DNA of 64,000 nucleotides from a virus (lineage: Duplodnaviria; Caudoviricetes). The notes beneath the pieces were generated by a model, which had not been told where the DNA came from, ran no database searches, and saw only the letters and a program-made list of their open reading frames with translations. Below, one piece after another: positions 5,651 through 38,073 of this stretch; the first letter of the stretch is position 1, and every line of letters starts with the position of its first letter. The stretch lies in IMG/VR virus record IMGVR_UViG_3300028886_000003, positions 1-64,000 of that record; one strand, given 5' to 3'. The position numbers were made by a program, and so were the translations under genes.

Positions 5651-6595
5651 ATGGGAAATGAAGGCGGATCATATATGGCAAATGGCTCAGCAAATGAAGC
5701 ATGGAATGGTACAGATGCATACGATCTATTACACCTTGGAGGAGCTTTAAGTGGATTAACAGGTGTTGGAAGTGGTGCAGAAGAGTTTGAACGTATGAAA
5801 CAATGGGATAGAATGGGTGGTATGATGAAAATTGAACCTGTAATGAAAAAACAAAATTTTCAAAATACCACAGTAGCATATATTGCTAATGGTTTACCTT
5901 ACCCACAAATACAACGTGTACCTATTCAAAGTGCCAAAATTACTCCTCATCAAATTTCATTCGATTTCTTTGATACATCAGAAGGAAAAGTTGGTGTTTC
6001 AAATGCATCAGAAAAACATATGATACTTGAATGTGATATATTAGTAAGTGATATTATTTATTTTATGTGGAATCACGCAGGATCACAAAATGCAGGACAT
6101 ATTGGTGGATTTGATGGAACTGGAGGAATGGGAGCTTATACAGGAATGAGATTTTTCAAGCAACAAGAAGAAGCTGTTAATAGTCTTATTGATGCTTGTA
6201 GTAAAGGAAAACAAAGTAGTGAATATGAAAAAGGTATTTATAATAAAAATGGTGAAGGATTAGGAAATTGGTTAGCAAGTAATCTTAATCCTTGGAATCG
6301 TACAGTAAATGATTTTCAAGAAACACAAGCTTTTATTGATTTCAGAAACACCTTTTTACAACAATTTAGTGGGTGGGTCTGCAAATTTACAAGTGAAGTA
6401 TTCGGTGTTTTTGACGGAGTAATGACTGACATTAGTTATGAAATTGAAGATGGTTTTTTAGATGCAAAATGGCATTTAAAAGTACAAGAGGCAATATTTA
6501 CAGAAGATTATAGTGAAGATGGAAAAAAACCCCAAGAAACAAGTGAAGGATCACAGGATGATTCCGGATCTATTCAGGCTGAGTCAAATGATTAA
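5651..6595 (+). CDS. Putative tail-tube initiator / distal-tail-like protein
   Basis: Directly follows the TMP, has an AGAGG RBS, and ends in the beta pattern 'FGVFDGVMTDISYE...WHLKVQE'. Function is inferred from position. Confidence 0.45.
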   Translation: MGNEGGSYMANGSANEAWNGTDAYDLLHLGGALSGLTGVGSGAEEFERMKQWDRMGGMMKIEPVMKKQNFQNTTVAYIANGLPYPQIQRVPIQSAKITPHQISFDFFDTSEGKVGVSNASEKHMILECDILVSDIIYFMWNHAGSQNAGHIGGFDGTGGMGAYTGMRFFKQQEEAVNSLIDACSKGKQSSEYEKGIYNKNGEGLGNWLASNLNPWNRTVNDFQETQAFIDFRNTFLQQFSGWVCKFTSEVFGVFDGVMTDISYEIEDGFLDAKWHLKVQEAIFTEDYSEDGKKPQETSEGSQDDSGSIQAESND

Positions 6596-8060
6596 TAGAA
6601 CTAGAGTGTCAGATAGTATATATAAAATACTTGATGAAGATCCAAAAGAAATTAATAAATATATAGAAGCTGAGGCTAAGAAAAAGCCTGAGCAAAAAGA
6701 GAAAGAAAAAGAAGCTAGAAATAAAAAGAGTAGTATTGAAGATGTTAATTTAAATGAAAATCTTAATAATCAAGAAAGTGAACCATCTAATCAGGTAATT
6801 ATACACACCGAAGCAGATAATTTAGTTCATAATTATTTTCATTTCTTTAATATGTATTGGGACTCTAAAGATCCATTATCAAGTGCTATACTTAAATTAC
6901 CTAAAACAGATACAGGAAACACTAAGTATTGGATTACATATACAGGTGAAATAACTATTTATTTAGGTAGTGATATTAAGAAAAAGCAAGAACAAACAAC
7001 AAATGATAAAAATAATACTACATCTAGTGAAACATATTGGGGATTACAAGGTGCACAACCAATATTTAGAGGAGATATAGGAAGAATAAAAGAATTTAAT
7101 GATACATTAGAGATACATGTTGATTCAATAGGAAAAAGGTTTAAACAAAAAATACCTGATGAATTTAGACAAGCATTTATTAATAATCAAAATGTTAGAG
7201 ATGCTTTTCAAGCTATTTGTGAATTTCTTGGCGTGAAATACATATGTCCACCAGGAGCACCACCTGAGGAAGATGAAGGAACTGATGAAACTTCACCTGC
7301 TGATGGAACAGAAAATAATGTAAATGGGACTACTCAACAAGAACAACAATTGGCAAGTGCAGCAAGTCAACAAGCTGCAAGTGCAATTCAAAATGCATCA
7401 CAAAATAATACAAATGGTGATCAAAATAATCAAAGTACTGACCCTAATGCTCAAAATGCTAACACCGAAGATTCATTAAATGAAGATGGTGAGCAAAGTG
7501 ATATACAAAATGGTTATTCAGATATATCATTCGATGCAAATGGGTCAATTGTTCATGGTTCAACCGCAATTGAAACAAGCCCAGACATGGAAGACACTTT
7601 ATTAGCATTAGAAGAACACCCATTAGATAAGTACCTTGAAGACACAACATATGTTGCAACAGATGTAAAAAGATTTTTAGATGGAGAAATGTTCGATACA
7701 GTACATAATTCTGTTATGAACTATGATGCAATTACCATAGAACCTAAATCATCAGCATCATCAGAGATGTCAAGTGTAGGTGGAGGCGTAGCTGGCGGTG
7801 ATGCTAGCGGTGCAAATTCAGGAAATGGATCTCCAGAAGCTAATTCTGGTAATGTATCAGCTACAATTGGACGTCCGAATCTTGGTTTAAATGTTGATGT
7901 AAATGTTCATAATGGAGGAATATATTTATCAAATGAATATATTAATAGCCTTCCTCCTGCACAAGCTGGTGCAAAATTAAGATGTTGTGCTAGTAATTAT
8001 AATACATCTACACGTGCAAGACTTTTTAAAAGAAGCATAGGTGGATTTGCAACAGGGTGA
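6588..8060 (+). CDS. Baseplate hub-like protein, N-terminal half (paralog A)
   Basis: Contains 'PIFRGDIGRIKE...IHVDSIGKRFKQK...RDAFQAICEFLGV', like gp27/Mu gp44-type hubs. The start is probably the ATG at 6588 overlapping the upstream stop (the track gives 6513). Confidence 0.55.
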   Translation: MINRTRVSDSIYKILDEDPKEINKYIEAEAKKKPEQKEKEKEARNKKSSIEDVNLNENLNNQESEPSNQVIIHTEADNLVHNYFHFFNMYWDSKDPLSSAILKLPKTDTGNTKYWITYTGEITIYLGSDIKKKQEQTTNDKNNTTSSETYWGLQGAQPIFRGDIGRIKEFNDTLEIHVDSIGKRFKQKIPDEFRQAFINNQNVRDAFQAICEFLGVKYICPPGAPPEEDEGTDETSPADGTENNVNGTTQQEQQLASAASQQAASAIQNASQNNTNGDQNNQSTDPNAQNANTEDSLNEDGEQSDIQNGYSDISFDANGSIVHGSTAIETSPDMEDTLLALEEHPLDKYLEDTTYVATDVKRFLDGEMFDTVHNSVMNYDAITIEPKSSASSEMSSVGGGVAGGDASGANSGNGSPEANSGNVSATIGRPNLGLNVDVNVHNGGIYLSNEYINSLPPAQAGAKLRCCASNYNTSTRARLFKRSIGGFATG

Positions 8061-31934: not shown

Positions 31935-33026
31935 ATGGCTTTAGATCAATCAAAAGTAAGAGCATTTATTAATGCGTTAAAAGCAAAGTTCGAAGAAAAA
32001 AGTAATAAAGTAACCTCTTGGAGTGCAACAGTATCAGATGAAAAATATCCATCTGAAAAATTAGTAAAAAATAGTTTAGATAACAAATTAGATGCATCTG
32101 ACGTTCCAACCAAAACATCAGATTTAACTAATGATGGTGATGGAGATAATGCATTTTTAACATCACATGCACCAGTTGATTCTTCATTAAGTACAAGTTC
32201 AACTAATGCAGTACAAAATGCAACAGTATCCACAGCATTAAATACAAAAGAAAATACATCTAACAAAGTTAGCTCTTGGAGTTCAACAGTATCAAACGAT
32301 AATTATCCATCTGAAAAACTAGTAAAAGATAGTTTAGATGATAAAGCTGATAAAACAGAAATACCTACTGCAACATCAGATTTAACTAATGATGGTGATG
32401 GAGATAATGCATTTTTAACATCACATCAATCTTTATCTGACATTGGTGGAGAAGTTTCAGTAGAAAAACAAACAACCGCAGAAACCGGTTACGCAGCAAC
32501 TTACGTTATTAAACAAGGTACTTCCTCTTCAAAAACTCAAGCAGGAGTAAAAATTAATATCCCTAAAGACTTCTTAGTAAGATCTGGTGAAGTAAAAACT
32601 GCAACAGCTGCTGATTTATCAACATTAGGACAAGGTTATACCACAGGAGATAAATATATTGATTTTGTTGTCAATACTGAAGATGCTTCTGAAACCCCAG
32701 AACACATTTATATTAATGTAAAAGATTTAGTAGAAGATACAACATACGATGCTGATGGAACTACACTTGAATTAAATGCAAATGGAGTATTCTCTGTTAA
32801 AGCAGGTGGAATTGGTACAACAGAATTAGATGAAGATATTGTAACATCATTAGGTTATGCAGATGATTATCATGGTAGCCCTGCTAGTAGTATTACCACA
32901 ACAGAAATTAATAATTGGAATTCACACATTAGACATACTATTTTAACAGAATCAGATGTTGAGGATAAAATTGAAGCATGTCTAACAGATATTACAAATG
33001 AATTACAAGGTGCAAATTCAGAATAA
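31935..33026 (+). CDS. Tail or head fibre shaft protein with an internal 86-aa duplication
   Basis: Repeats 'NKV.SW..TVS...YPSEKLVK.SLD.K' and 'TSDLTNDGDGDNAFLTSH', plus a 'GVKINIPKDFLV' module. Confidence 0.6.
   Translation: MALDQSKVRAFINALKAKFEEKSNKVTSWSATVSDEKYPSEKLVKNSLDNKLDASDVPTKTSDLTNDGDGDNAFLTSHAPVDSSLSTSSTNAVQNATVSTALNTKENTSNKVSSWSSTVSNDNYPSEKLVKDSLDDKADKTEIPTATSDLTNDGDGDNAFLTSHQSLSDIGGEVSVEKQTTAETGYAATYVIKQGTSSSKTQAGVKINIPKDFLVRSGEVKTATAADLSTLGQGYTTGDKYIDFVVNTEDASETPEHIYINVKDLVEDTTYDADGTTLELNANGVFSVKAGGIGTTELDEDIVTSLGYADDYHGSPASSITTTEINNWNSHIRHTILTESDVEDKIEACLTDITNELQGANSE
32114..32426 (+). repeat. Direct repeat: exact 55 bp at 32114-32168 and 32372-32426 (258-bp period)
   Basis: aacatcagatttaactaatgatggtgatggagataatgcatttttaacatcacat occurs twice, and the flanks are degenerate copies. 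Confidence 0.9.
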
Positions 33027-33049: not shown

Positions 33050-34060
33050 ATGACAAACAAAAGAACACAACAAGTAATTGATTTTGCTAACACAATAAAA
33101 GGATTAATTACAGCACATTATAATATTACCGGAAATTCTTCACAAAAAGGACATGTTCAAGCGGGTGGCGCACCACAAGATATTGGAACATCAAGTGCTG
33201 CAGGAACAGACAATGGTTATTATGCAAGAGCAGACCACGTACATAAAGCATCTTATGATAATTTAATAAATAAACCTACAATTCCATCCGCTAATACAAC
33301 AGCAAGTAATATTAAAATGGACGGAACACAGAGTGCTGGCTCTGCTACAACTTATGCAAAAGCTGACCATATACACCCAACCGACACAAGTAGAGCAGCA
33401 TCTAACCATACACATAATGAATATGCTAGTAGTACACATACACACAGTGGATATATTACTTTAAGTGATATATATCAAACAAAAATTGAAGCAAGTAACT
33501 ATAATGTAAGTATAGACTCAACTGATAATGTTATTACAGTTACATTATTAGATTTTAATAATCAACCAGTAACAAACAAAAGTGTAACATTAACATGTGA
33601 CAAAGGATATTTCACAAAAAAAGGCAGTACCAATATCAGTGGTAAAACAACAAAAAGCGTATCAGTTAACACTGATAGTAATGGGAAAATTACTGCAACT
33701 TGGACAGCATCAGAATGGGGATTATGTACCTTTTCAGCAAACAGTAACAAAGTACAAATTAATGTAAAAGGTTGTAGAACATCAAGTAATCAGTATATTA
33801 ATAAATATGAATTTGAAACATATTATCAAATAGTTATTGTTAAAAATACAAATTATAGTGTAACACCTAATTATCAAGATTTAGGAAGTATATTATCTTC
33901 AGTAGAAGCACCAGAAGTAGATATTTATCAAAGAAGTAATGGTAATGATAATGTATTAATTAGATTAGGTTCAAATGGTCATGTATTATTCAGAACCACA
34001 GATTCAAGTCGTGTTACATCAAATTTGATATCTCAATTTATATATCGTAAAAAATGGTGA
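33050..34060 (+). CDS. Tail fibre / receptor-binding protein
   Basis: Trimeric-fibre HxH motifs ('YARADHVH', 'YAKADHIHP', 'HTH'), a Big_1 domain ('VNTDSNGKITATW') and a beta-sandwich-like C-terminal head. Confidence 0.7.
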   Translation: MTNKRTQQVIDFANTIKGLITAHYNITGNSSQKGHVQAGGAPQDIGTSSAAGTDNGYYARADHVHKASYDNLINKPTIPSANTTASNIKMDGTQSAGSATTYAKADHIHPTDTSRAASNHTHNEYASSTHTHSGYITLSDIYQTKIEASNYNVSIDSTDNVITVTLLDFNNQPVTNKSVTLTCDKGYFTKKGSTNISGKTTKSVSVNTDSNGKITATWTASEWGLCTFSANSNKVQINVKGCRTSSNQYINKYEFETYYQIVIVKNTNYSVTPNYQDLGSILSSVEAPEVDIYQRSNGNDNVLIRLGSNGHVLFRTTDSSRVTSNLISQFIYRKKW

Positions 34061-34298
34061 AGGATTAGCAGAATTAAATCTACATTATGCTCAGTCTGCT
34101 GCAATTGGACCTATTGGTCATTGGTGGACTATAGACTCACCATATAGACCAAGACAAGATGTAGCTACAATAAGAAACAATTATGGTGTCTATTGGGTTA
34201 TCAATGCAACCTCACAAGGGCAAATACAAATTGGTACATTGAATAATAGTAATACAACATTAGGTGGTTTGTGGGGGCAGATAGTTTATAGATATTAA
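34029..34298 (+). pseudogene. Start-less open frame encoding an alternative receptor-binding head domain
   Basis: 89 sense codons in the +1 frame relative to 33050..34060: YLNLYIVKNGEGLAELNLHYAQSAAIGPIGHWWTIDSPYRPRQDVATIRNNYGVYWVINATSQGQIQIGTLNNSNTTLGGLWGQIVYRY*. There is no in-frame ATG. Confidence 0.6.
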
Positions 34299-34340
34299 AT
34301 TCTATGATTATTTATGAAAAAGAACTGCTTAGGTGAAAAA

Positions 34341-35024
34341 ATGGCTAGAAAATTAATTGGGAGTGTAATAACCGATAATAATGGTGAAGCTCATTTAAAT
34401 TATGAAATAAATGAATCAACAACTTTTGTTAGTACAGTAAATAATTTAGAAGATACAATTACTTACAATCCAATACTTTATAATCCATCTTTTACATCAG
34501 AAAATCCTGCTCCAACAACACGATTAGGAAATGGATATAGAGTAACACAAGCTAATGGAGAAATTACTCTTATAGATGCTTGCTTGACTGATGGATGGAG
34601 CAACGAAGGATTATGGGAATGCGATTACGATGTTAAATGGAGTAACCTACGATATGTATGGTTCAGAACACTAATGGCATTACCCAATACTGTACTAACC
34701 GGTGGATGGGAAGGATGTGTAGTTACTACTCAGGCAGGATTAGGTAGTAATGTTCAGAGAGATAATAATGATTGTTTAACAGTATTACATACTAGTATTT
34801 GGAATAATCCCTCTGTACCATATGTACATATTAATATTAAAAAAACTTCACCAACTACCCTTGTTGTTACTAAAACAGGTGATACAGCTAATAATGGTAC
34901 TGTTACTTTTACTAATTGTGATTTATTAGATACATATGATAAATTAAGTATTGGTGCTACATGTAATAATGGAAACAGTATTGGCTTACCAACAATTCGT
35001 AATTTAATAGTTAAACCATTATAA
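34341..35024 (+). CDS. Putative receptor-binding / lectin-like fibre tip protein
   Basis: AGGTGA RBS before the ATG at 34341. The N-terminus 'RKLIGSVITDNNGEA' is a partial Ig motif, and the rest is a Trp-rich beta domain. Confidence 0.5.
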   Translation: MARKLIGSVITDNNGEAHLNYEINESTTFVSTVNNLEDTITYNPILYNPSFTSENPAPTTRLGNGYRVTQANGEITLIDACLTDGWSNEGLWECDYDVKWSNLRYVWFRTLMALPNTVLTGGWEGCVVTTQAGLGSNVQRDNNDCLTVLHTSIWNNPSVPYVHINIKKTSPTTLVVTKTGDTANNGTVTFTNCDLLDTYDKLSIGATCNNGNSIGLPTIRNLIVKPL

Positions 35025-35074: not shown

Positions 35075-36043
35075 ATGACTCAAATAACTAAAAAAGAAGT
35101 TTATTTTATCGCAAAAGTTTTAAAAAAAACTATTAAGAAAGATAAAAAACTTCCATCTAAAATTACAATAAATAAACAAACATATTCATATGAAGAATGC
35201 GCGTATATACTTGCACATGGTATAAATCATTTAAATGAAAAATTTACATTAATTAATATTAAAAAACCATCCAATATTACTGGAGAAAAAATTAATGAAA
35301 ATATTGCTAAAGATGATTTCTTAGACCAAGCTAAACGTGTAGAAGCATATATTAAAGAACATAAACAATGCCCAAGTACTGTAAAAACAGTTAAATCAAA
35401 AACTAAAGTTGGAGTAGTTGATTATATATATGCATTTGCAAGAATAGTTGTATGGTATTATAAACATAAAAAAACATTACCAAAACAATGTTTATACAAA
35501 AATGTTATAGCACCTAAAACTGCAAGCAAAAAGAAAAAATATGGTCACGCTACACAGCATGGTTGCGACCAAATGGGACAAAACACAGGATATTATTGCG
35601 GAGTACACAGTTTACAAGAAGTATTCAGAAACTTAACTGGTATTGTTGTAAAACAATCAACATTAGCATCAGTTGCAGGAACAACTACATCAGGAACTCC
35701 ACATTCAGGATTAGACACTACAGTTGCTTGGTTTAACAGAACTTATGATTTTGATCTAGAAGTTGAATGGAAAAACTTCTCTGACTTAGGCTGGGGTGGA
35801 ATTAAAAAGATTATTGAATCTGATAATAAAGATTGTGTAGTGCACAACCTCTATCGTAACCAATGGGGTCATTACGAAACTGTTAATGGTGTTTCGGATT
35901 CCAATATTAAAGTTCAAAATTCATTAGGAAGTTATTGCGGCCCATGTTATTGTGGATATGTAGAAAATAGAGCACCAAGTACTTTTAGAAGTTATATTGG
36001 TGGAATTAGTCAAAAATCTATTATGGTTATTGAAAGGAAGTAG
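35075..36043 (+). CDS. Pseudomurein endoisopeptidase / endolysin (PMBR repeats + C39-like peptidase, PeiR-like)
   Basis: N-terminal PMBR-like repeats ('AKRVEAYIKEHKQCP', 'YIYAFARIVVWYYKHKKTLP'). The C-terminal 'QNTGYYCG...GT...GHYETV...VQNS' is a papain-like Cys-His-Asn arrangement. Confidence 0.8.
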   Translation: MTQITKKEVYFIAKVLKKTIKKDKKLPSKITINKQTYSYEECAYILAHGINHLNEKFTLINIKKPSNITGEKINENIAKDDFLDQAKRVEAYIKEHKQCPSTVKTVKSKTKVGVVDYIYAFARIVVWYYKHKKTLPKQCLYKNVIAPKTASKKKKYGHATQHGCDQMGQNTGYYCGVHSLQEVFRNLTGIVVKQSTLASVAGTTTSGTPHSGLDTTVAWFNRTYDFDLEVEWKNFSDLGWGGIKKIIESDNKDCVVHNLYRNQWGHYETVNGVSDSNIKVQNSLGSYCGPCYCGYVENRAPSTFRSYIGGISQKSIMVIERK

Positions 36044-36383: not shown

Positions 36384-37094
36384 ATGTCAATTTCAGATAC
36401 ATGGGTAAACATTAAAGAATATTTTACTAAATGGCATAAAAATGATTATAAGACTTTACATACAGGTGAAACAGATCAAATTACTAATCGTACTCCTGAT
36501 TCAGATTATTTAGTTAAAAGTAAAGCTGTATATGATAAAGTAAATGAAATAAATACTGGTATAAATAATATAAACGTTAATTTAGATAAAAAATGTAATT
36601 TAAATCAAATAGCACAAGGAGATAGTATTAGTTTAGAAAAAACACAGAATGGTTTTGAAATAAATTATCATTCTGTTTCAGATGGACTAATGACAGGAAA
36701 AGATCAATCTTTTTTAAGAAGTACCGGTATGTGGATAAAAAGAAGCAAAAGTACAAATCCTCCATGGGGTTCTGTACCAGATTATTCAACTGTATGGGTC
36801 AACCCTATTTTACAATTAGTATACTTTTATTACAATGAACCAAATTGTCCTAGACTAAAAAAAGACAAAGAATATAGTACACCTGATAGACCAGCAGTTA
36901 GTGACTGGTTTTATCGTATTCATCCAGTAGCACATATTTGGGGGGGAACAAATACCCCAGGTGTACACATAGGAGTTTCAAGTAATGGTGTTTTTAATAT
37001 TAAATCAGATAGAACAATCACAAGCTTTAATCTTGTTGGATCTTTAATGTGGTTTTATGGTCCTAATGGAGATAGTAATACATATAATGGGTGA
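36384..37094 (+). CDS. Tail fibre protein with a C-terminal receptor-binding head
   Basis: Fibre motif 'SDGLMTGKD'. The C-terminal head is 'VWVNPILQLVYF...IHP...IGVSSNGVF...GSLMWFY'. Confidence 0.55.
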   Translation: MSISDTWVNIKEYFTKWHKNDYKTLHTGETDQITNRTPDSDYLVKSKAVYDKVNEINTGINNINVNLDKKCNLNQIAQGDSISLEKTQNGFEINYHSVSDGLMTGKDQSFLRSTGMWIKRSKSTNPPWGSVPDYSTVWVNPILQLVYFYYNEPNCPRLKKDKEYSTPDRPAVSDWFYRIHPVAHIWGGTNTPGVHIGVSSNGVFNIKSDRTITSFNLVGSLMWFYGPNGDSNTYNG

Positions 37095-37101
37095 ATAAAT
37101 A

Positions 37102-38073
37102 ATGACAAATGAAGAGTTAAAAGTTGTTAATTTAAAAGATGTAATTAAAGAATTTACATATGTTAAAAATGATTTTTTATCAAAAATAGAAGAAGCAAAT
37201 AAGGAATCTATAGCTCCAGCATCAACTAAAGCTATTGTAGAATATATAACAAATGAAAAAGGTGCGATTAATACAGAAATTAATAGTAAACTTAATAGTG
37301 ATTATTTACCCAAAGAAACAATTAAAAGTACATATTTAACAAAAAATGATGCTTCAATTACTTATGCCACAAAAGATAATCTTAATCATTACTTAACCGA
37401 AGATAATGCTAACAATCTTTATTCTTTAAAAGATCATACTCACGATAATTTAACTTTTAATATTTTTGCAAATCCTGCTGAAACAACATTATTAATAGAT
37501 GAATTAATTGAACCAGGATATTATAAATATATAGGAAATACTGCTGCAATTAGTTGTGCACCTGATAATGTTATTTATTATAAAAATGGACTTATTCGAG
37601 TTGAAAAACAAGGCAATCGTATTGTACAAACTTTATATGCTACATCACAATATGATGATAATTTTGTCATTGATGGTAGACAATTTATTAGATATGGTTT
37701 TATTGATGACGAAGATAATTTTATACGAAATGATTGGTGTGTAAAACATTTACCTTATAAAGAAAGGCCTGATTTGGTTAATAGAAAAGGAGATAATGTT
37801 GATAGTTTTACAATTTTTGAAAATACTTTCGGATATCATTTCAAATGGCTACAATCAAATGATAAATATTTCTTACCAATGGACCAATATCAATTTTACA
37901 CAATCGCAAAATTTTCTAAATTACCTATTGCCTATCCACATATTATAGGTAACCTTATAGGCCATATAGATACTAAAATTACAGACACTGAGTTTAAAAT
38001 TAGATCAGTCAATAAAAAAGGAGAATATGTTACTGGAGTTAATAATACTTTCTTCATTCCACGTATAAACTGA
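37102..38073 (+). CDS. Tail fibre protein (pyocin-knob-like domain plus head)
   Basis: Shaft motifs 'YLTKNDASITYATK' and 'HTHD', and a knob-like 'PGYY...NGLIRVEK...IVQT...FIRYG'. Confidence 0.55.
   Translation: MTNEELKVVNLKDVIKEFTYVKNDFLSKIEEANKESIAPASTKAIVEYITNEKGAINTEINSKLNSDYLPKETIKSTYLTKNDASITYATKDNLNHYLTEDNANNLYSLKDHTHDNLTFNIFANPAETTLLIDELIEPGYYKYIGNTAAISCAPDNVIYYKNGLIRVEKQGNRIVQTLYATSQYDDNFVIDGRQFIRYGFIDDEDNFIRNDWCVKHLPYKERPDLVNRKGDNVDSFTIFENTFGYHFKWLQSNDKYFLPMDQYQFYTIAKFSKLPIAYPHIIGNLIGHIDTKITDTEFKIRSVNKKGEYVTGVNNTFFIPRIN

Follow-up and report, generated by a model that had tools for sequence, protein, structure and literature searches.

A start-less frame behind a viral tail-fibre gene is probably the decayed remnant of a silent receptor-binding-head cassette

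The subject of this study is a 64,000-nt stretch of viral DNA (the window), which is the first 64 kb of the IMG/VR record IMGVR_UViG_3300028886_000003, a complete virus genome of 145,330 bp with direct terminal repeats and 28% G+C. The window contains a gene for a tail-fibre or receptor-binding protein whose C-terminal part forms an expressed head (head 1), and behind this gene, in apparently intergenic DNA, lies an open frame without a start codon that encodes a second, orphan head (head 2). Based on comparison with related viruses, the orphan frame is probably the decayed remnant, or fossil, of a silent receptor-binding-head cassette. As the orphan is truncated, lacks a junction site and is apparently drifting, it is not established as a switch or as a usable reserve. 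The locus is made up of the following features.

33050..34060, plus strand: tail-fibre or receptor-binding protein gene, 336 amino acids (aa), from the list of open reading frames (ORFs) and translation
33675..33774, plus strand: boundary between the constant and the variable part (...NGKITATWTASEWGLCTFSANSNKVQINVKG), homologous to an inverted-repeat arm of the related contig L012 (blastn)
33775..34052, plus strand: DNA specific to head 1, 278 nt, in place of 52 nt in L012 (blastn breakpoints)
34049..34054, plus strand: run of six A residues (A6) at the recombination or deletion junction (sequence, blastn and run counts)
34053..34298, plus strand: orphan head 2, 81 codons and TAA, start-less, homologous to an expressed receptor-binding head
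34299..34315, plus strand: short, conserved 3' flank of the cassette, with homology to L012 up to 34309 and to the related contig L017 up to about 34315

The orphan lies in the +1 frame relative to the fibre gene, in an open stretch of 89 codons that begins at 34029 and ends with the TAA at 34296-34298. That the gap holds such a start-less frame had been proposed in the initial annotation; its coordinates were right, and homology now supports it. No ATG, GTG or TTG in the orphan frame yields a product of at least 30 aa, no other ORF of at least 30 aa is present on either strand between 34061 and 34313, and the frame of the next gene opens at 34314. By arithmetic from base composition, an 89-codon frame stays open by chance at 28% GC with a probability of about (0.917)^89 = 4e-4. 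The derivation of the orphan from coding sequence is settled by homology, as it shares 78% amino acid identity over 97% of its length with the C-terminus of a called protein. This protein, P0003 (205 aa), represents the sole cluster returned for the orphan from a collection of 5.8 billion proteins in a search restricted to the longer ones. P0003 is encoded by the relative L012 and consists of the same Big_1 domain, 89% identical to that of the window, joined in frame to a head of the orphan type (...NVKGWKVVQGADNLNSYFHIRVNGEGLAELNIHY...LWGQIVYRY). The presence of the orphan head in the expressed position of a related genome, which had been put forward as a check, was thereby found. In other searches the orphan and most of the neighbouring proteins gave nothing from Pfam or PHROGs, the locus had no blastn match among 50,697 phage records, and peptide patterns from the orphan had no match in IMG/VR, where patterns from the fibre matched its N-terminal repeats only.

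At the DNA level the relationship to L012 is confined to two blocks with sharp breakpoints. Positions 33462-33774 of the window correspond to 6008-6320 of L012 (91.7% identity), and positions 34053-34309 correspond to 6373-6629 (89.9%; blastn for both). Between these homologous blocks L012 has 52 nt and the window 278 nt, and the difference of 226 nt equals 3x75+1, which accounts for the +1 offset of the orphan. The 3' end of the fibre gene reads CGT AAA AAA TGG TGA. Homology to the L012 head picks up again at 34053, inside the A6 run, so that the final codon and the stop of the fibre gene (TGG TGA, 34055-34060) are head 2 sequence read out of frame. Residual homology to L012 to the left of the junction was not significant (p 0.125), and for this reason a homology of the last strand of head 1 with the first strand of head 2 was dropped. 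To the right, the decapeptide ILNSMIIYEK had been taken for a stub of a third head; its first half is the conserved cassette 3' flank, also found in L012 and L017, and the remainder is without a match. The likeness of this stub to a head is chance.

The fibre protein itself is composed of an N-terminal HxH repeat module (aa 1-132), an immunoglobulin (Ig)-like Big_1 domain (aa 157-219), the junction motif, and head 1, which takes up the C-terminal approximately 95 aa (aa ~243-336). The HxH repeats match the viral fibre loci L002-L007. The Big_1 assignment (Pfam PF02369) has an E-value of 1e-05 and a score of 26 bits, which is under the Pfam cut-off of 34.9 bits, and the structural matches of the domain are Ig domains of invasin and FdeC (Z 5.0-5.6). 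Within the boundary segment 33675..33774 the junction motif TCAGCAAAC...CAAATTAATGT extends from 33734 onward according to the site alignment. The HxH module is fused to Big_1 and head in the window (33050-33450); in the relatives Big_1 and head form a separate gene (L012:6001 and L016:4531), which encodes 203-205 aa and has its own start (MIISD... and MQISD...). In L012 this gene stands behind one for a 564-aa Phage_fiber_rpt protein.

To compare the two heads of the window, a profile was built from six heads of the relatives alone and searched against the 1,069 six-frame ORFs of the genome. The best match was the orphan (E 1.7e-29), head 1 came next (E 9.6e-4), and no other ORF reached an E-value below 0.4. 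The same order was obtained with a profile free of any head-2-type sequence (E 0.0018 for the orphan and 0.074 for head 1). The idea that the two heads are alike thus has support from the profile search and none from BLASTP, which gave no alignment between head 1 and the orphan. A likeness to the C-termini of the proteins encoded at 36384..37094 and 37102..38073 was not borne out, as neither had a head-profile match at E<10. Head 1 looks complete, since in the multiple alignment it ends within a residue or two of the ends of the other heads. It was without relatives in two word-index searches of the 5.8-billion-protein collection, which covered proteins of 57-184 and 184-588 aa and left out longer ones.

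Structures were predicted for the head of the relative and for head 1. The AlphaFold (AF2) model of P0003 had a predicted local distance difference test (pLDDT) score of 54 overall and 58-79 in the head, and the residues that are absent from the orphan correspond in this model to the first two of about ten predicted strands. The model of head 1 (pLDDT 42) was too poor for fold comparison. For the head-2 type the best structural matches were heads of lactococcal phages, namely bIL170 (2fsd, Z 8.0), TP901-1 ORF49 (4ios, Z 7.9, and 2f0c, Z 7.8) and p2 (2wzp, Z 6.7), followed by Listeria phage PSA gp15 and the fibre heads of adenovirus and reovirus. Structural neighbours in the ESM Atlas were C-termini of phage tail proteins. 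The predicted head-2 fold therefore appears to resemble phage receptor-binding heads, with borderline values and a consistent theme.

The relatives show what complete sets of such cassettes look like. L012 carries a 110-nt inverted repeat with arms at 6221-6330 and 6928-7037, which are 91% complementary and share a 91-nt core at 97.8%. The arms bracket 597 nt with two heads, head A on the plus strand and, on the minus strand, the start-less head B. Head B is in frame with the sequence NGKITATWTASEWGLCTFSANN.VQINV.GW encoded by the right arm, and a single inversion would join this head to the constant part. The boundary segment of the window (33675..33774) matches L012 in two places, directly at 6221-6320 and inverted at 6947-7037, the latter at 94.5% (blastn). 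This layout makes L012:6221-7037 a candidate for an invertible head switch; no recombinase gene lies close by. The independent short-read contig L031 (ERR3275097) ends 33 nt inside the right arm, at the equivalent of L012:7004; this break was not counted as evidence of inversion, as it is explained by the length of the repeat relative to the k-mer size of the assembler. Two genes upstream of the L012 fibre, a 538-aa protein (L012:2655-4271) has a head-like C-terminus (...VTVRIEGNGEIWAKS...GVWGAIVYPYN) resembling the cassette heads, and it may be that heads of this family serve more than one fibre gene.

L016, which is more distantly related, encodes a small protein of the same kind; its head is of a third, unrelated type, and nothing follows it. 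When the L012 head was used for an exhaustive HMMER search, the only further relative was P0004, which is encoded on the 1.4-kb contigs L017 and L018 from two samples (ERZ28595704 and ERZ27317909). These contigs hold, on the plus strand, a tandem of three start-less cassettes. They also contain a single minus-strand head and the tail end of another head. Each of the tandem cassettes opens with the junction motif (Y/F)SAN..K.QI.V.G(W/Y), in DNA TCAGCAAAY...CAAAT.... L017:1-1395 consists almost entirely of start-less head cassettes, of which a and c share a conserved leader of about 30 nt. By their sequence arrangement L017 and L018 represent a candidate multi-cassette shufflon or reservoir, and it would appear that the relatives invert their segments. 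In further searches, the DNA pattern of the junction motif gave five single matches in IMG/VR, all of which proved unrelated, and scans with an alignment of the constant domain gave L016 again as the only match in JGI metagenomes and nothing in 185,579 prokaryote genomes.

From these comparisons a course of events can be proposed for the window. In this lineage the small fibre protein is made up of a constant part, the Ig-like Big_1 domain, and a head of about 96 aa that can be exchanged; the conserved boundary between them is ...CTFSAN..K.QINV.GW. The relatives store start-less heads behind the gene, each starting with the junction motif and some of them inverted, and crossing-over of inverted junction copies would attach a different head to the constant domain. 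The expressed position of the window virus is now taken by head 1. Either a deletion or an illegitimate cross-over would have joined the 3' end of head 1 directly to codon ~18 of the former head 2; the same event would have taken away the junction motif and the first two predicted beta-strands of head 2 and left it one base out of frame. With head 2 out of frame, the fibre ORF runs 8 nt into it and ends at TGA. We infer the order of these events, and deletion as against insertion, and likewise that the orphan is not translated.

The state of the window copy is consistent with decay. The orphan is without the junction motif and without the first approximately 17 codons of the domain, which correspond to the two predicted strands named above. 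The junction is present once in the genome, and self-blastn gave no inverted repeat. In the complete 145-kb genome neither Resolvase (PF00239) nor Phage_integrase (PF00589) was detected at E<=0.1, and no IS110 DEDD domain was found. Of head cassettes, the window has one that is expressed and one that is truncated; the relatives hold full cassette sets. Past the window by 2.6 kb, a 225-aa frame on the minus strand carries a lone Transposase_20 (IS110 C-terminal) domain (66640-66927, 33 bits). This frame gave the only recombinase-related signal in the genome, and linking its protein to head switching would be pure speculation.

Constraint on the orphan was assessed with a branch test in which an L017 cassette served as outgroup and the orphan branch was compared to the branch of the expressed L012 head. 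On the orphan branch 13 substitutions were counted, distributed over the codon positions of the 11 classified ones as 6/3/2, with nine nonsynonymous and two synonymous changes. The expressed L012 head had five substitutions, of which four were classified; none was nonsynonymous and all four were at third positions. The contrast between the two branches was significant (Fisher p = 0.011). The ratio of nonsynonymous to synonymous substitution rates (dN/dS) was 0.60 for the orphan pair, in comparison to 0.115 for the adjoining Big_1 region. These values suggest that constraint on the orphan is relaxed. That the frame is still open is no evidence of selection, as it also persists in 29% of simulations in which 14 substitutions were placed at random.

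Several points weigh against this reading. In L012, L013 and L030, from three samples, the segment was found in one orientation throughout, and no recombinase was found in the approximately 25 kb of the relatives' contigs that were examined. The branch test comprises 15 classified substitutions and a single outgroup, and diversifying selection on a head that is still in use would likewise raise nonsynonymous counts. The head-2 model is modest and that of head 1 unusable. Furthermore, the 89 codons are free of stops, and the point of contact between the frame and the fibre gene is precisely a homopolymer, in which one lost base would fuse the two.

This last point is the basis of an alternative in which the orphan is part of a working switch: loss of an A from the A6 run during replication or transcription, or a +1 shift during translation, would give a minor fibre of 415 aa that carries head 1 followed by head 2 and would broaden or change the host range with no need for an invertase. 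The initial annotation had named an A6 run as the junction and given the length of the fusion, and both are correct at base level, with the run at 34049-34054. Removal of one A gives 334+81 = 415 aa with the junction ...RK/NGEGLAELNLHY and the predicted fusion peptide FIYRK-NGEGLAELNLHYAQSAAIGPIGHWWTIDSPYRPR. The frames thus meet at the A6 run in a clean fusion with 89 open codons, and as positions no more than 2 nt from a run of at least six A residues make up only 2.4% of the genome, the coincidence is mild but real. Against this, such runs are ordinary in the genome, which has 338 of them (2.3 per kb), many in frame in structural genes and including an in-frame A7 in the fibre gene itself. 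The RNA 3' of the site folds no better than shuffled sequences (z -0.84), so that a stimulatory structure is lacking, and the junction matched no Rfam family. No promoter or terminator signal exceeded chance. A -1 frameshift was rejected, as it meets a stop at once and the other forward frame is full of stops. For a +1 shift at the stop, tRNA-Trp would have to re-pair on GGU, which the UGG before the stop does not permit. It is known that tRNA-Lys is slippery on A-runs, and AAA AAA permits +1 re-pairing at the first Lys codon, with no rare codon after the run; a slip here is physically possible, and the explanation was retained for that reason. The appended domain would be without its first two predicted strands, and the substitutions on the orphan branch look unconstrained. 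Together with the recurrence of the same A6 in other assemblies, described below, these results leave the slippage or +1-frameshift switch of the initial annotation unsupported, and we consider it improbable. That the orphan is alive in the sense that slipped-strand changes in the A6 run or a +1 switch sometimes append head 2 to head 1 is, in our estimate, highly improbable. If it were true, a methanogen virus deprived of its inversion machinery would retain the choice of a second receptor specificity with neither recombinase nor reverse transcriptase.

An error in the sequence would lead to the same product, since a true A5 would mean that the virus makes the 415-aa fibre with two heads. Homopolymers are classic error sites; however, positions 33050-35024 are base-identical, A6 included, in a JGI contig and in two Logan contigs from other samples, and the ENA assembly ERZ27256887, compared by gene call, has the same 336-aa gene. 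With three DNA-identical assemblies and a fourth with the same call, a one-off assembly slip is unlikely. In addition, the offset results from the 226-nt length difference to L012 and not from a single base in collinear sequence, and we regard this explanation as very nearly negligible. The orphan could also be a silent donor that is brought into the expressed position by homologous recombination, either inside the genome or with a co-infecting relative that has the junction and head-2 sequence in common with it. Relatives plainly keep reservoirs of silent heads, and the orphan is 90% identical in DNA to an expressed head and has kept the conserved 3' flank. However, without the 5' junction motif and upstream homology no intragenomic cross-over installs a whole head, a cross-over inside the orphan gives a head without N-terminal strands unless the partner supplies them, and the excess of nonsynonymous changes argues against maintenance. 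We consider a donor role unlikely. It had also been suggested that old heads are pushed downstream as a reservoir. This comes near the mark: the orphan belongs to the same family as a head that was displaced or silent, and reservoirs of such heads, with inverted repeats and junction motifs as in inversion switches, do exist in relatives. The parts needed for re-use are lost in the window copy, and in this respect the orphan is a fossil and not a usable spare.

Downstream of the cassette the window continues with two genes that delimit the remnant and bear on the host.

34341..35024, plus strand: next gene, outside the cassette, encoding 227 aa; its start is the ATG at 34341, and AGGTGA lies 5 nt before it
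35075..36043, plus strand: lysis enzyme with two pseudomurein-binding repeats (Pfam PMBR, 36.7 bits against a cut-off of 24.9)

The first of these genes forms the right limit of the remnant, and gene calls of other assemblies use the same 227-aa form. The lysis protein has weak endolysin matches in PHROGs at residues 165-213, and homologues of this enzyme adjoin the fibre locus in L012 and L016. Its PMBR repeats point to a host with a pseudomurein wall (Methanobacteriales), and the relatives with head arrays probably infect methanogens too. Upstream of the fibre gene, a gene for a 363-aa protein contains a 166-nt direct repeat (32003-32168 and 32261-32426, 84% identical), which is an internal duplication of the unit 'SW S.TVS...YPSEKLVK.SLD.K'.

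Taken by itself, the locus in the window is an ordinary gene fragment that was stranded by an exchange of the receptor-binding tip, and it illustrates the way in which such viruses alter host specificity and their spare parts decay. The main value of the analysis is that the comparison led to inversion-type and multi-cassette head arrays in viruses that are rarely sampled. In the literature that we searched, the only viruses described with such inversion switches are bacterial phages and haloarchaeal viruses. The arrays reported here, if confirmed, would extend these switches to viruses of methanogens and raise the question of which enzyme flips them. For annotation, long 'intergenic' gaps behind fibre genes in these viruses should be checked for start-less head cassettes.

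Among known systems, the lactococcal phage receptor-binding heads are the closest in predicted structure, as the model of the relative's head 2 aligns with them over 89-94 residues at Z 7.8-8.0. They differ in sequence (8-12% identity), and a Z of about 8 is the level at which a common arrangement cannot be excluded. Listeria phage PSA reportedly uses programmed +1 frameshifting to make C-terminally extended capsid and tail proteins, and the window is similar in that a structural gene is followed by a second frame that could lengthen its product. It differs in that there is no favourable site at the stop and no purifying selection on the extension, which is a truncated domain. In L012 two fibre C-termini face each other between inverted repeats inside coding sequence, as in the G segment of Mu with its invertase Gin and the C segment of P1 with Cin. 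In contrast to these, no serine invertase was found in our case, there is no tail-fibre assembly gene for each head, and the locus of the window cannot invert.

The Rin shufflons found in Bifidobacterium prophages and the p15B shufflon Min consist of a constant N-terminal part and start-less variable C-terminal cassettes in both orientations, with a short repeated cross-over sequence before each cassette and heads that are 6-30% identical to one another (PMC6109161). The relatives L012 and L017 have a like layout. However, no recombinase gene was seen beside the arrays of the relatives, and the repeated junction is coding and about 40 nt long (up to 110 nt in L012) in comparison to the 11 bp of rix. 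The window differs further by its single truncated cassette, the absence of a repeat and of an invertase, and a host that is apparently an archaeon. Tail fibres are a recognised class of inversion targets in bacteria (PMC9881135). In archaea, the haloarchaeal viruses phiCh1, phiH1 and ChaoS9 have a fibre inversion module driven by the tyrosine recombinase Int1 (PMC6471424; Klein et al. 2012, cited through PMC10791045). There, int1 is flanked by whole fibre genes in convergent orientation, and clusters of repeats mediate the exchange, whereas the cassettes described here are about 300 nt long, have no int gene between them and encode proteins that are unrelated in sequence. The likeness is that an archaeal tailed virus swaps the C-termini of its fibres by inversion, and in ChaoS9 the second copy is nonfunctional and disrupted, which parallels the dead orphan of the window.

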